Shown here piece after piece: positions 13,811 through 23,926 of a DNA stretch of 64,000 bases. Under the pieces are notes generated by a model. It ran no database searches. It was not told the DNA's origin and was given only the letters and a program-made list of their open reading frames with translations. Source of the stretch: Escherichia phage vB_EcoM_E9.1; sequence record PP886230. One strand, written 5' to 3'. Every line of letters begins with the position of its first letter. Within the stretch, counting starts at the first letter, position 1. The position numbers and the translations under genes were made by a program.

Positions 13811-14149
13811 ATGGAACAATATTTTGAATTAATAAACAAAGTATCATTTTATGTAGTATCTTTGGTTTGGGTGTATTATATGTTTTGCTACATTATTGCA
13901 TTCTTCCGATACACTACTTTATATGAACGTATCTATTATGATGCCCCAATTTCATTCTTGATGTTTTGTGCATGTACGTGGGGAATATTAGAAGTACTGA
14001 TATGTGGGTATAGTACTGATGAATTAAATCTGGTATCGGTCTTGACTGGGTTTTCATTTGTTGTTATGATAGCTGCCGTTCCAGTATGGTTGTTCTTTGG
14101 ACTAGTTCATCGCATTGATATATGGCGTTCTAATATCCCTGAAAAGTAA
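13811..14149 (+). CDS. small polytopic membrane protein, paralog family A
   Basis: 3-4 hydrophobic helices; C-terminal R..NIPEK tail. Confidence 0.55.
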   Translation: MEQYFELINKVSFYVVSLVWVYYMFCYIIAFFRYTTLYERIYYDAPISFLMFCACTWGILEVLICGYSTDELNLVSVLTGFSFVVMIAAVPVWLFFGLVHRIDIWRSNIPEK

Positions 14150-14158
14150 GGATTGGTA

Positions 14159-14500
14159 ATGATTTATTACACTAACATGTTTGCCTATGCTGTTGCTTGC
14201 ATTTACATTGTGTACTTCTTATTCGGTGGAGTACTGTGCTTCTTTAAGTACAAAACGTTGTTCAACCGAATGTACCCAAATCATCCAATTGTGGTTGTAC
14301 TTTTGATTCTTTCAGTTTCTCAAATAATAGTTGAAACTACAATGGGTATCAGTAGTGTACATTATAGTTTTGGTACTATAGTAATTATTACTATGCTTAT
14401 TGCATACATTTTAGTACTTGGATATGGTATCTTTGGTAATATTGGTATGAAAATGTATCATCGAATTAAAACATTACGTGATAATCTACCGGAGCGTTGA
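14159..14500 (+). CDS. small polytopic membrane protein, paralog family A
   Basis: C-terminal R.NLPER; track start is an upstream TTG. Confidence 0.55.
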   Translation: MIYYTNMFAYAVACIYIVYFLFGGVLCFFKYKTLFNRMYPNHPIVVVLLILSVSQIIVETTMGISSVHYSFGTIVIITMLIAYILVLGYGIFGNIGMKMYHRIKTLRDNLPER

Positions 14501-14501
14501 T

Positions 14502-14846
14502 ATGTATAATTTGAACCTAATCTCATATATTATAACAACACTGTTTACATTCTATGCCTTTGTTGGTATAATCCTACTGTACTTTAAATTTTATAAAGTG
14601 TTTAACCGTTTCTATCCTTCAATGGAGAATGAGTTTTTCTTTGTGTTGTACGTAGGTTACACATTAATGGCTACATGTTTCACTGTAGCCGATGGTGTCA
14701 TCGGCATTAAAACTGATTCCCCAAATGGTAGTACGCTGGTTGCATTTATTCTTACTGGATTCCTTGCAACTTATATTGCCTTCATTACAACATGGTCAGT
14801 GGTTGAATTTCTCTTGCGACTACGAAAGAATATGCCGAATCGATAG
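14502..14846 (+). CDS. small polytopic membrane protein, paralog family A
   Basis: C-terminal RKNMPNR; internal ATG with RBS ggagcg. Confidence 0.55.
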   Translation: MYNLNLISYIITTLFTFYAFVGIILLYFKFYKVFNRFYPSMENEFFFVLYVGYTLMATCFTVADGVIGIKTDSPNGSTLVAFILTGFLATYIAFITTWSVVEFLLRLRKNMPNR

Positions 14847-14855
14847 GAGACATAT

Positions 14856-15110
14856 ATGTTTGCGTTGCGTAATAAAAACACTAAAGAATTATTATGTATT
14901 GATACCGTATGGGATTGTGCGGGGTCAACTACAGTTCTTGAAGAAGGAACTGGATATTGCGTGTTTGTTGTACATGATAGGAATGAACTCGAATTATTAC
15001 TTGCTGAGTTCAATGCTGGTGGTAATCCTAACAGTACTGAATACCCTGAGATTATCAATCCAGCACCACCAGGCTCTTATGAAATTCTACAACTGTGGGA
15101 GTTGAAGTAA
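14856..15110 (+). CDS. hypothetical protein (84 aa)
   Basis: RBS aggaga. Confidence 0.5.
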   Translation: MFALRNKNTKELLCIDTVWDCAGSTTVLEEGTGYCVFVVHDRNELELLLAEFNAGGNPNSTEYPEIINPAPPGSYEILQLWELK

Positions 15111-15490
15111 TGCGTCAAATGCACAAAGTAACCGAGCTAAACAAGCGTCTGGTTAAACAATCAATGTTCGAGGATAAAGAGTCTTATTATAACTTTAAAC
15201 GTGCTGTAGAGGCTGCTATCCACATTCAGAAGCTTAAAGAACGTGGTTGTATTATTCTGGAAAATGGGTCGGAAGTTGTAACGGATGACTTTAGTGTAGC
15301 GTTTGATGTTTCACCTGACGGGACGCTATCAATGCCCCGCTTAGGAACTGGAAACATGACTGTTTGGGTTGGCTTCACTATGGGGAATGTACCTGGTACT
15401 GTGTACGTAGATGATGCGGAATTGAAAGACAGTTTCAAAAACTTATCTTATCTTGAACCACAATACGCACATGAAATGAATTTATTTTGA
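15110..15490 (+). CDS. hypothetical protein
   Basis: ATG overlapping upstream stop (TAATG). Confidence 0.5.
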   Translation: MRQMHKVTELNKRLVKQSMFEDKESYYNFKRAVEAAIHIQKLKERGCIILENGSEVVTDDFSVAFDVSPDGTLSMPRLGTGNMTVWVGFTMGNVPGTVYVDDAELKDSFKNLSYLEPQYAHEMNLF

Positions 15491-15491
15491 G

Positions 15492-21825: not shown

Positions 21826-22172
21826 TGTTTGAAGCTTATCTTGAGTTTTTAAGGAGTAGTCCAGTTGCACATTCACTTGCAGGGATTATTCTAACAACTT
21901 ATGTATCATTTTGGGTAGTTATGTTTCTAGGATGGTATTTTAAACGACAATTCTATAAACGTAATGGTGAAGATTTTATAAATTCTGCCATTAATCAATC
22001 GTTGTTTGCATCAACATTGATTGCATGTATTGTAGCAACACTCACAGGAAAGGTACTACCAGCTTTTTCCGCAGTTTACGGCACACTTGGGATGATATGT
22101 TTAACTTTTATATTGACCATTAAAATTTGTTGTGTTATGATTGAACTTCGAAATAAGATACCGGAGGAATGA
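21825..22172 (+). CDS. small polytopic membrane protein, paralog family B
   Basis: C-terminal LRNKIPEE. Confidence 0.55.
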   Translation: MFEAYLEFLRSSPVAHSLAGIILTTYVSFWVVMFLGWYFKRQFYKRNGEDFINSAINQSLFASTLIACIVATLTGKVLPAFSAVYGTLGMICLTFILTIKICCVMIELRNKIPEE

Positions 22173-22507
22173 TGGAGTACTTTATTGATTTACTGCCGTG
22201 GTATATGAAAGTTAGTACCATGTACTATATTATTAGTGCTGGATTCTACTTTCTGATGTGGTTCTTTAAACGACCAATTTCAGTATTCATCGCTGATAAC
22301 ATGCTGCAATTAAAATTACACGCATGGTTTGGTATGGCGATGATTATGCCTATTATTCACTACTCAATGATTAGTAGAGGTTTCCGTTCTAATGGTGAAC
22401 CAATTGTATTAGTATTCTATTGGGGTTCAACTATTGCATATGTAAGTTTGTTGTTGTTCCCAGTCGTTCATAAGTTACGTGCTAAAGTTCCTGATGCGAG
22501 GTACTAA
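22169..22507 (+). CDS. small polytopic membrane protein, paralog family B
   Basis: C-terminal LRAKVPDARY. Confidence 0.55.
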   Translation: MMEYFIDLLPWYMKVSTMYYIISAGFYFLMWFFKRPISVFIADNMLQLKLHAWFGMAMIMPIIHYSMISRGFRSNGEPIVLVFYWGSTIAYVSLLLFPVVHKLRAKVPDARY

Positions 22508-22821
22508 TGGATATAGTAACATTGATTTACACGTTGTATTCATTCTATTTCATTATGTGTTGGGTTGGATTTTTATTTGTACTCAAGATGTTTGATTATG
22601 TTGAAAAACAGATAAAAGAATTTTGTATTCCTTTTATCGGTTCAACCATTATTAGTGTTTCTTGTGTGTATTTTTTGGTTTTTGATCCACCAGATAACAC
22701 TGCAATGATTGACTTGATGTTACTACCAACAACTGTTACTTTTTTATGTAGTCTGATGCCGCCGATTAGCCGTGGACTATCAGAATTTAGACGCAATCAA
22801 AAGCGTAAACGAGGGATGTAA
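22507..22821 (+). CDS. small polytopic membrane protein, paralog family B
   Basis: hydrophobic helices, basic tail. Confidence 0.5.
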   Translation: MDIVTLIYTLYSFYFIMCWVGFLFVLKMFDYVEKQIKEFCIPFIGSTIISVSCVYFLVFDPPDNTAMIDLMLLPTTVTFLCSLMPPISRGLSEFRRNQKRKRGM

Positions 22822-23189
22822 TGGAAATTGCTCTTATTATCTTAACTGCTATGCTGTTTATTAGTACTGTGGTTATAATTGGTAAATTCTTTTGTGTATC
22901 ATTTTTAGAAACGGTATACGATGAAATTGCTGATGATTATGAATTACAAGCCGGATTTTTCATTACGTATTGGCTTAGTTTATTTTGTCTAGTCATTGCT
23001 TGGATTTTACATATCTTTAAATGGGGTATGGTAGACGGTGATCCTATTATGGCAATTATTGTTCTAGTGTTTGGTATCCTTGGTGGTGCAGTGCATAATC
23101 TAATGGTTATCTGGCAAACTGTTCAATATGTTTTGGTTCCCTATTTCGAAAAGATGCACAGTACAATTAAAAAACGTAAACGAGGTTAG
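22821..23189 (+). CDS. small polytopic membrane protein, paralog family B
   Basis: hydrophobic helices, basic tail KKRKRG. Confidence 0.5.
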   Translation: MEIALIILTAMLFISTVVIIGKFFCVSFLETVYDEIADDYELQAGFFITYWLSLFCLVIAWILHIFKWGMVDGDPIMAIIVLVFGILGGAVHNLMVIWQTVQYVLVPYFEKMHSTIKKRKRG

Positions 23190-23190
23190 T

Positions 23191-23553
23191 ATGAATGGGA
23201 TAGAATTATCTTTCGTTGGTCAATTACTAGTAATGGCGTATACATTTATCTTCTCACTGAATGCATTCGTGTGCATTGGGAAGTACTTCCATAAGCGACC
23301 ATTATCAAATATATATGATGTAATCCAAAAGAGATATAGTCCAGCATATACTGTGTTGGGTACAGTATTCAATTTTGGTTTTATTGTATTAATAATTGGA
23401 CTGTTCACATCCTCTTTGAATACAATAACCTTCGGTCTTATGATATGTTCATTGGTATTAGCCGTAATTATATGTTGTTTAGTACTGCACCTTGTGGTAC
23501 TATTATATATAAAGATCTCTGAAATCCACCAACGTTTGGGTATGAGGAAATAA
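23191..23553 (+). CDS. small polytopic membrane protein, paralog family B
   Basis: internal ATG (MNGIELSF) with RBS. Confidence 0.5.
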   Translation: MNGIELSFVGQLLVMAYTFIFSLNAFVCIGKYFHKRPLSNIYDVIQKRYSPAYTVLGTVFNFGFIVLIIGLFTSSLNTITFGLMICSLVLAVIICCLVLHLVVLLYIKISEIHQRLGMRK

Positions 23554-23554
23554 T

Positions 23555-23926
23555 ATGAGTTACCGTGAGATATTTTCCATTATTTCAATTATTATGTTCA
23601 GTACTGGAACACTGGCATGGTTATTATACTTCTTCTGTATTAATCCAGTGTATAATATGTTATGTAATATTAAATCAAGTGCCGGATATATCACTTTTAT
23701 GGTCTTTATGGGATATTATTGTCTAAGCATTTTAGGTGTTGTTTTGGTTGTTATATTTGATGTGGGACCAAATAGTGATGGTATGGAAATACATGAATTA
23801 ATAACCATGTTTGGATGTATGATACCAACAGCACTACTGTTTGTAGCTACTGGTAGTGGATTGATAAAATTATATAATTATTTAAAATCCATTCATAATT
23901 CCATTCATAATAAGCGTATGTCATAA
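23555..23926 (+). CDS. small polytopic membrane protein, paralog family B
   Basis: hydrophobic helices, basic tail. Confidence 0.5.
   Translation: MSYREIFSIISIIMFSTGTLAWLLYFFCINPVYNMLCNIKSSAGYITFMVFMGYYCLSILGVVLVVIFDVGPNSDGMEIHELITMFGCMIPTALLFVATGSGLIKLYNYLKSIHNSIHNKRMS

Follow-up and report, generated by a model that had tools for sequence, protein, structure and literature searches.

A family of small, predicted three-helix membrane proteins, arrayed after an NrdC.10-like NTPase in RaK2-like jumbo phages

Small polytopic proteins of the bacterial inner membrane are known from several phage and plasmid systems. The class I holin S105 of phage lambda has about 105 amino acids (aa), three transmembrane (TM) domains, a periplasmic N-terminus and cytoplasmic C-terminus (N-out/C-in) and a charged C-terminal tail. 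Imm of phage T4 has 83 aa and two TM segments. The immunity proteins against pore-forming colicins, such as colicins E1 and Ia, are plasmid-encoded, about 111-113 aa long and have three TM helices; they neutralise a membrane-inserted toxin via intramembrane helix recognition and diversify with their targets. Here we describe ten genes for small predicted membrane proteins in a stretch of 64,000 nucleotides (nt) from Escherichia phage vB_EcoM_E9.1 (sequence record PP886230), which was analysed as a whole and is referred to below as the window. Three of the genes form a small cluster (cluster 1) and seven form a tandem array (cluster 2), and on profile evidence all ten belong to one phage-specific family.

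The likeness to class I holins is one of form, and extends to size, three TM helices, N-out/C-in orientation and a charged cytoplasmic tail. Class I holins are however late proteins, usually single-copy, encoded with a dual start in a lysis cassette beside the endolysin, whereas there are ten copies here in an early-type context. T4 Imm, too, is small, resides in the inner membrane and acts at the envelope, and a virulent myovirus produces it early, but it is a single gene in T4. The colicin immunity proteins, also small, polytopic and located in the inner membrane, provide the working analogy for a repertoire, although they are plasmid-encoded, unlike the phage family.

Positions 13500-24000 of the window match Escherichia phage vB_Eco_slurp01 (Asteriusvirus, 348 kb) with 98.9% identity over 96% of the query, and further nucleotide matches were found in about 35 Asteriusvirus-type jumbo phages of E. 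coli and Salmonella. Judged by this similarity, the source phage is an Asteriusvirus jumbo phage. The listing of open reading frames (ORFs) holds, on the + strand, three adjacent ORFs at 13811-14846 and seven at 21487-23926, so that the ten genes in two clusters described in an earlier note on this DNA were all recovered. The starts of m2, m3 and m9 were moved, to 14159, 14502 and 23191 respectively, because of the ATG codons in the slurp01 annotation and the spacing to the ribosome-binding site. With these starts the proteins have 104-123 aa, in agreement with the 105-125 aa first estimated. The slurp01 counterparts of all ten are each labelled 'hypothetical protein', and no additional family member was found elsewhere in the 64 kb window. 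The ten genes are as follows; the R-type and H-type subfamilies are explained below.

13811..14149, + strand: m1, 112 aa, 3 TM, R-type, tail WRSNIPEK; phrog_19285; AlphaFold2 predicted local distance difference test score (pLDDT) 84
14159..14500, + strand: m2, 113 aa, 3 TM, R-type, tail LRDNLPER; start moved from TTG at 14153 to ATG at 14159
14502..14846, + strand: m3, 114 aa, 3 TM, R-type, tail LRKNMPNR; start moved from GTG at 14478 to ATG at 14502
21487..21825, + strand: m4, 112 aa, 3 TM, R-type, tail GRDKIRGDF; opens the seven-gene array
21825..22172, + strand: m5, 115 aa, 3 TM, R-type, tail LRNKIPEE; start overlaps the m4 stop
22169..22507, + strand: m6, 112 aa, R-type, tail LRAKVPDARY; weaker hydrophobicity of TM1 and TM2; orthologs as far as Klebsiella phage Muenster
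22507..22821, + strand: m7, 104 aa, 3 TM, H-type, tail FRRNQKRKRGM
22821..23189, + strand: m8, 122 aa, 3 TM, H-type, GKFFCV motif, tail MHSTIKKRKRG; AlphaFold2 pLDDT 93.6
23191..23553, + strand: m9, 120 aa, 3 TM, H-type, GKYFHK motif, tail IHQRLGMRK; start moved from 23128 to ATG at 23191
23555..23926, + strand: m10, 123 aa, 3 TM, H-type, YFFCINP motif, tail IHNSIHNKRMS; closes the array

Plain BLAST joins only some pairs of these proteins (m1-m2 at 1e-9, m2-m3 at 1e-5 and several more at about 1e-2). Relatives were therefore gathered from an exhaustive profile search and from the homologous regions of other phages. The exhaustive search, against 1.84 billion representative proteins, returned 26 clusters at E < 1e-3, all of 89-127 aa save one 56-aa fragment and most aligning almost end to end; a word-indexed protein search gave just 23 close relatives. 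Nine orthogroups were obtained from the gathered relatives. Comparison of their profiles with hhalign gave strong probabilities for m1m2-m3 (98%), m5-m6 (96.5%), m8-m9 (92.5%) and m8-m10 (93.9%), and intermediate ones for m1m2-m4 (63%), m3-m5 (58%) and m7-m8 (42%). The pooled profiles of m1-m6 and m7-m10 matched each other at 95.5% (P 1.4e-8, 113 colinear columns), whereas column-reversed controls reached P 1e-3 to 4e-3 over 12 columns, and four other small multi-TM ORFs of the window did not match the family (probability at most 0.4%). Since the profile matches hold while the controls fail, m1-m10 are, at the level of sequence profiles, a single family with two subfamilies (R-type, m1-m6; H-type, m7-m10), and the paralogy first proposed for them is upheld.

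The subfamilies differ in their motifs. In the R-type proteins TM1 ends with [FY]FK and the tail has the pattern LRxK(I/L)P(E/D); the H-type proteins carry GKFFC-like motifs, and their tail pattern (I/M)HxxI leads into a K/R-rich end, for example KKRKRG. Across 33 sequences the Phe that closes TM1 does not vary, and profile similarity, this Phe and a [RH]xx[ILMV] tail are found throughout the family. Two neighbouring Muenster paralogs with the tails EFRNKLPD and EFHNKLPD form a bridge between the R and H tails. The tail R-x-N-(I/L/M)-P-(E/N), which the earlier note had read in several members, is exact in m1, m2 and m3 and has a related form in m5 (RNKIPE) and m6 (RAKVPD), but it does not extend to m7-m10, in which [RH]xx[ILQ] is followed by K/R-rich tails. 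The GGAG/GAGG Shine-Dalgarno sequence of the next gene also falls within the final two to four codons of m2 and m4-m9, Pro-Glu for example being encoded as CCGGAG, and because of this overlap the conservation of the tail may partly be a constraint at the nucleotide level. It is a feature of the protein too, since m1 and m3 have the motif without such an overlap and the Arg/His sits upstream of the Shine-Dalgarno sequence.

Hydropathy (Kyte-Doolittle windows of 19 aa) gave three TM-like segments in nine of the ten proteins, and one strong and two weaker segments in m6; where three to four hydrophobic helices had been proposed, the number is thus three per protein, with m6 the least clear case. 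Lys and Arg are distributed very unevenly. Summed over the ten proteins there are 4 in the N-termini, 29 in loop 1, 4 in loop 2 and 42 in the tails, that is 71 in loop 1 plus tail vs 8 in the N-terminus plus loop 2. By the positive-inside rule, this distribution therefore indicates an N-out/C-in topology. The tails hold 42 Lys and Arg vs 14 Asp and Glu, and so are basic as first described. Most of the homologous genes of Klebsiella phage Muenster are annotated 'TMHMM: 3 TMDs; N-out, C-in'. AlphaFold2 models of m1 (pLDDT 84, predicted template modelling score 0.65) and m8 (pLDDT 93.6, 0.79) have a common plan, in which TM1 is followed by a short loop-1 helix, TM2 and a long helix covering TM3 and the tail. 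A length of 100-130 aa, three predicted TM helices and the N-out/C-in orientation are thus common to the family.

Scans of all ten proteins against Pfam, NCBIfam and PADLOC gave sub-threshold noise only. There was no Pfam Imm_superinfect match and hhalign gave 0.3% against T4 Imm; no similarity to colicin immunity proteins was found in Pfam or in the exhaustive profile search, which returned family members only. Comparison of folds gave no significant match, with 'holin' entries of BFVD appearing only at E 2-9.5. In PHROGs the ten proteins are split over seven families of unknown function (19285, 19454, 19046, 27396, 33258, 26405 and 27618), plus the generic 'membrane protein'. These PHROGs and the 'putative membrane protein' genes of RaK2-like phages (Muenster, CBB) are the same family at the same position after the NTPase, which databases divide among seven or more families, taken as unrelated and with no function assigned, or list as anonymous hypothetical proteins. 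No paper found records that they form a single family, that it has two subfamilies or that the array structure is clade-wide, and the literature on jumbo-phage genomes, Asteriusvirus, NrdC.10 and small phage membrane proteins, including a 2026 jumbo-phage review, held no functional data.

The array has a fixed genomic address, set by the following gene.

20651..21421, + strand: P-loop NTPase, homolog of T4/RB69 NrdC.10, 256 aa; context gene, not a family member

Searches with tblastn and hidden Markov models (HMMs) detected the family in Asteriusvirus-type phages, the divergent Turkey5/JNE01 lineage, Alcyoneusvirus (Klebsiella phages RaK2, K64-1 and Muenster) and Salmonella phage Munch, and an iterated profile added Pectobacterium phage CBB and Xanthomonas phage XbC2 (Mimasvirus), Serratia phage BF (Eneladusvirus) and Erwinia phage Hallingskeid. 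In every RaK2-like jumbo phage examined the main array directly follows the NrdC.10-like NTPase, and cluster 2 and its counterparts in relatives are tandem arrays at this point. The smaller cluster 1 stands apart from the array, and lies upstream of denV in the window and in Muenster, Turkey5, Turkey3 and A4. Copy numbers (cluster 1 plus array) are 3+7 in the window and Turkey3, 3+8 in ph0011 and Turkey5, 1+7 in A4 and 1+8 in Muenster (gp527 and gp554-561). Munch has 1+1 firm matches, plus two or three further 3-TM ORFs at the same position; CBB has four members (CBB_539 and 543-545), BF five, XbC2 five after the NTPase and one upstream, and Hallingskeid ten, in an array of five R-type then five H-type genes with the same polarity as in the window.

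Each of m4-m10 has one ortholog at the same array position and in the same order in ph0011, Turkey3, Turkey5 and A4; ph0011 and Turkey5 carry extra duplicates of m4 or m7, and Muenster also holds orthologs of m6, m7, m8 and m10. The paralogs therefore predate the split of these genera and have been retained individually. No cellular homologs were found, the sole 'E. coli' entries being phage sequence inside bacterial assemblies. The family is, as far as these searches reach, phage-specific, and is present in every RaK2-like jumbo-phage lineage examined.

Several candidates from outside this set were set aside. No family member was found in the NrdC.10 neighbourhood of RB69, and phi92 gave no match to the family HMM. 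GenBank notes on ph0011 genes (9435-10950 of the record stretch) read 'Phi92_gp231/233/234' and are spurious; phi92 gp231 and gp233, to which they point, are unrelated small ORFs. CBB_529 and Serratia BF_0525 have tails like the R-type and are not claimed as members, their probability being just 6.5%. Many GenBank phage records name the NrdC.10-like NTPase itself 'thioredoxin', 'transcriptional regulator FleQ', 'clamp loader' or 'regulator of chromosome condensation'; these labels are probably errors of annotation carry-over, as Pfam gives AAA/P-loop matches only.

The array diverges far more than its surroundings in some pairs of phages. In the comparison with phage A4, the proteins of the flanking genes share 93-98% identity (NTPase 98.4%, denV 95%), and m4-m10 share just 25-67%. 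Against ph0011 the NTPase is 58% identical and the family members 73-88%, and against Turkey3 m10 is 62% and m4-m8 are 82-91% identical. Because the identities of NTPase and members vary independently in this way, the arrays behave as exchangeable, highly divergent allelic cassettes, with alleles that assort independently of the NTPase. Pairwise ratios of non-synonymous to synonymous substitution (dN/dS) of the members are 0.1-0.65, so that, on average, the proteins are under purifying selection. Conservation within orthogroups is highest in TM1, loop 1 and the tail, and variation is greatest in TM2, the periplasmic loop (loop 2) and TM3.

Early expression of both clusters, in line with the 'phage early region' of the earlier note, is supported indirectly by the following signals and by the literature on a relative. 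Near-consensus sigma-70 promoters (11-12 of 12 positions) occupy short gaps before + strand genes of this block, the NTPase included, and similar matches precede both clusters; in most relatives no gap separates the NTPase and the array.

13462..13490, + strand: sigma-70-like promoter match TTGACA-17-TATTCT, 10 of 12, before a 93-aa gene (13527-13808) that heads the m1-m3 cluster
20593..20622, + strand: sigma-70-like promoter match TTGACT-18-TATAAT, TG-extended, 11 of 12, before the NTPase
21429..21457, + strand: sigma-70-like promoter match TTGACA-17-TACTAT, 10 of 12, in the 65-nt gap before m4
23931..23956, no strand assigned: hairpin with an 11-bp stem, immediately past m10

The hairpin would be a weak terminator for the array, since a T-run is present only on its - strand side. 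The T4-type late motif TATAAATA was not found near either cluster. In the whole window it is strongly depleted, with 2 sites vs 14.5 expected, and both sites (9742-9749 and 10391-10398) directly precede genes, at 9786-10169 and 10415-11692, that have virion proteins of phAPEC6 (gp037c and gp035c) as their orthologs. These two are late genes inside an otherwise early-looking block. The phAPEC6 orthologs of the family, gp012c-017c and gp028c-029c, are missing from its virion proteome, although small TM proteins are hard for mass spectrometry. For CBB, the authors of its genome paper presume from RpoD-like promoters that the genes CBB_390-546 are an early region (PMC5259590); this region includes the NTPase CBB_538 and the family members CBB_539, CBB_543, CBB_544 and CBB_545. 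A T7 gp0.7-like protein kinase and denV are among the neighbours. From these signals we infer that both clusters are expressed early; a transcriptome was not found in the literature on Asteriusvirus and related jumbo phages.

The reading that we tentatively prefer, at somewhat less than even chances, is that the ten genes provide an early-expressed repertoire of binders of membrane targets, which serves takeover, exclusion or counter-defence. They encode an ancient phage-specific family of inner-membrane proteins with three TM helices and, by the topology signal, a periplasmic N-terminus and a basic cytoplasmic tail; the genes form translationally coupled operons, probably expressed early from host-type promoters. 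The cytoplasmic face that they share, consisting of the invariant Phe in [FY]F[KC] at the end of TM1, the short loop-1 helix and the [RH]xx[ILMV] tail, would act in membrane insertion and topology, or towards a cytoplasmic partner common to all members. In each paralog the fast-evolving parts, namely TM2, the periplasmic loop and TM3, would bind a distinct membrane-embedded target through helix-helix contact, and candidate targets are host envelope proteins, membrane-acting defence effectors and components that a superinfecting phage uses. Such a repertoire is favoured for three reasons: copy number changes from lineage to lineage, alleles assort independently, and variation is concentrated in TM2, loop 2 and TM3. 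All of these are easier to reconcile with many targets than with a single machine. The binding of targets and its outcome, be it host takeover, counter-defence or exclusion, are speculative. Superinfection exclusion and interference with host proteins such as transporters or sensors, both put forward in the earlier note, are possible outcomes that would fit the fast, cassette-like divergence, and the arrays are among the fastest-diverging blocks in an otherwise near-identical early region, which is the signature expected at a phage-host or phage-phage interface.

Several points weigh against this preferred reading. The topology is indicated by Kyte-Doolittle windows and the positive-inside rule, and no known family matches by sequence or fold. 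The mean dN/dS is below 1, so that it carries no direct sign of positive selection, and the divergence could come from relaxed constraint on TM helices together with recombination. Literature searches returned no experiment or transcriptome for any member. Finally, seven orthologs in a fixed order with overlapping stops and starts fit a multi-subunit assembly equally well.

That assembly is the main rival. It holds that the array members are subunits of one hetero-oligomeric inner-membrane complex (a channel, scaffold or anchor), which may work with the NrdC.10-like NTPase, and we consider it unlikely, though a serious alternative. The stop/start spacing between the array genes m4-m10 is -4 to +1 nt, overlapping or abutting, which suggests coupled and near-equimolar translation; the orthology is one-to-one by position with gene order kept across genera, the NTPase is always directly upstream of the array, and both subfamilies are present in each Asteriusvirus-type, Muenster (RaK2-type), Hallingskeid and Munch array examined. 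Against it, the number of members varies between lineages, with 2 firm matches in Munch, 4 in CBB and 10 in Hallingskeid, and with lineage-specific duplicates elsewhere. The NTPase and array alleles also assort independently in A4 and ph0011, the Turkey3 comparison places a breakpoint inside the array (m10 at 62% vs m4-m8 at 82-91%), and T4-like phages retain NrdC.10 without such an array.

Returning to the repertoire of membrane-target binders, a narrower form of it would make the members intramembrane 'immunity-like' proteins, with the variable TM2 and TM3 neutralising distinct membrane-disrupting defence effectors or the entry device of a competitor. This form is doubtful. If true, it would be the first phage counter-defence family to use inner-membrane helix-helix recognition, and a hallmark of the RaK2-like jumbo-phage clade. 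These phages (Asteriusvirus, Alcyoneusvirus, Mimasvirus and Eneladusvirus) are in development for therapy, and most of their early genes are uncharacterised. About ten anonymous 'hypothetical proteins' per genome become one family with a fixed address, two subfamilies, a predicted topology and conserved and variable surfaces, and this family is a concrete candidate to act at the inner membrane in the takeover of the host, in exclusion or in counter-defence.

A role as holins or antiholins that set the timing of lysis, a further suggestion of the earlier note, is improbable. The class I layout described above would permit it, RaK2-like endolysins have a TM domain at the N-terminus, and a holin is not named in the CBB paper (PMC5259590). 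The genomic context disfavours such a role, as neither cluster adjoins an endolysin or spanin; instead of a lysis cassette, the neighbours are the NTPase, a 220-aa protein with no Pfam match, RCC1-like genes, the kinase and denV. Judged by sequence motifs, late expression is not indicated either, because sigma-70-like promoters are found in place of the T4-type late motif that does precede the window's two virion-protein genes. There is no Pfam holin match, hhalign gives 0.3% against lambda S, and the BFVD matches are those mentioned above. The fEgEco12 paper reports a holin gene (PMC13070987), and none is annotated within the fEgEco12 match to this region. Ten early copies of hole-forming proteins would moreover be lethal.

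That the ORFs are compositional artefacts of an AT-rich genome, neither real nor related, has next to no chance and is refuted by their conservation, since, although the region has 30-38% G+C, which favours Phe, Ile, Leu and Tyr codons, and TM segments are low in information, the ORFs are conserved across genera with dN/dS < 1 and intact ribosome-binding sites and start spacing, the profile matches are colinear and run end to end while reversed and unrelated-TM controls fail, and the AlphaFold2 models are confident.

Other features of the region were also recorded. The early region is generally rich in small membrane proteins; the ORFs 4937-5179, 5238-5564, 6014-6391 and 17665-17859 in the + strand block have two or three predicted TM segments and are unrelated to the family. 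For the gene at 12791-13465, one gene upstream of cluster 1, relatives carry the annotation of a T7/K11 gp0.7-like protein kinase, and a Pfam scan of it at E 0.01 gave no match. Kinases of the T7 gp0.7 type are a classic early host-takeover function. Near its protein kinase gene, Hallingskeid has a 91-aa gene (634-909 of its stretch) annotated 'superinfection immunity protein', and the ORF 631-909, which is slightly longer, has three predicted TM-like segments. Since hhalign gives at most 0.3% between this protein and the ten-member family, so that they are unrelated, RaK2-like phages may have a separate Imm-like gene, judged by the Hallingskeid annotation.

The denV (endonuclease V) ORF at 17111-17626 encodes 171 aa vs 144 aa in slurp01, with an acidic C-terminal extension, and the orthologs of Turkey3, A4, Turkey5 and Muenster align to just 84% of it. 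Compared with slurp01, the window has a duplication of 77 nt in the large gene between denV and the NTPase (PSLUR01_00127, 'hypothetical protein'), with repeat copies at 19826-19951, 19903-20028 and 20092-20217. The duplication breaks the frame into ORFs 18620-19969 and 20002-20583, and may be genuine, as a pseudogene or variant, or else an assembly slip within the repeat. On the other side of the array, about 13 paralogous genes with RCC1-like repeats, mostly of 370-430 aa, occupy 24611-38725 on the - strand and converge on the membrane-protein array. The two nearest to it, which were those scanned, match Pfam RCC1/WD40_RLD. Homologs of these genes are labelled 'DNA condensation protein', and several are present in the virion proteome of phAPEC6.

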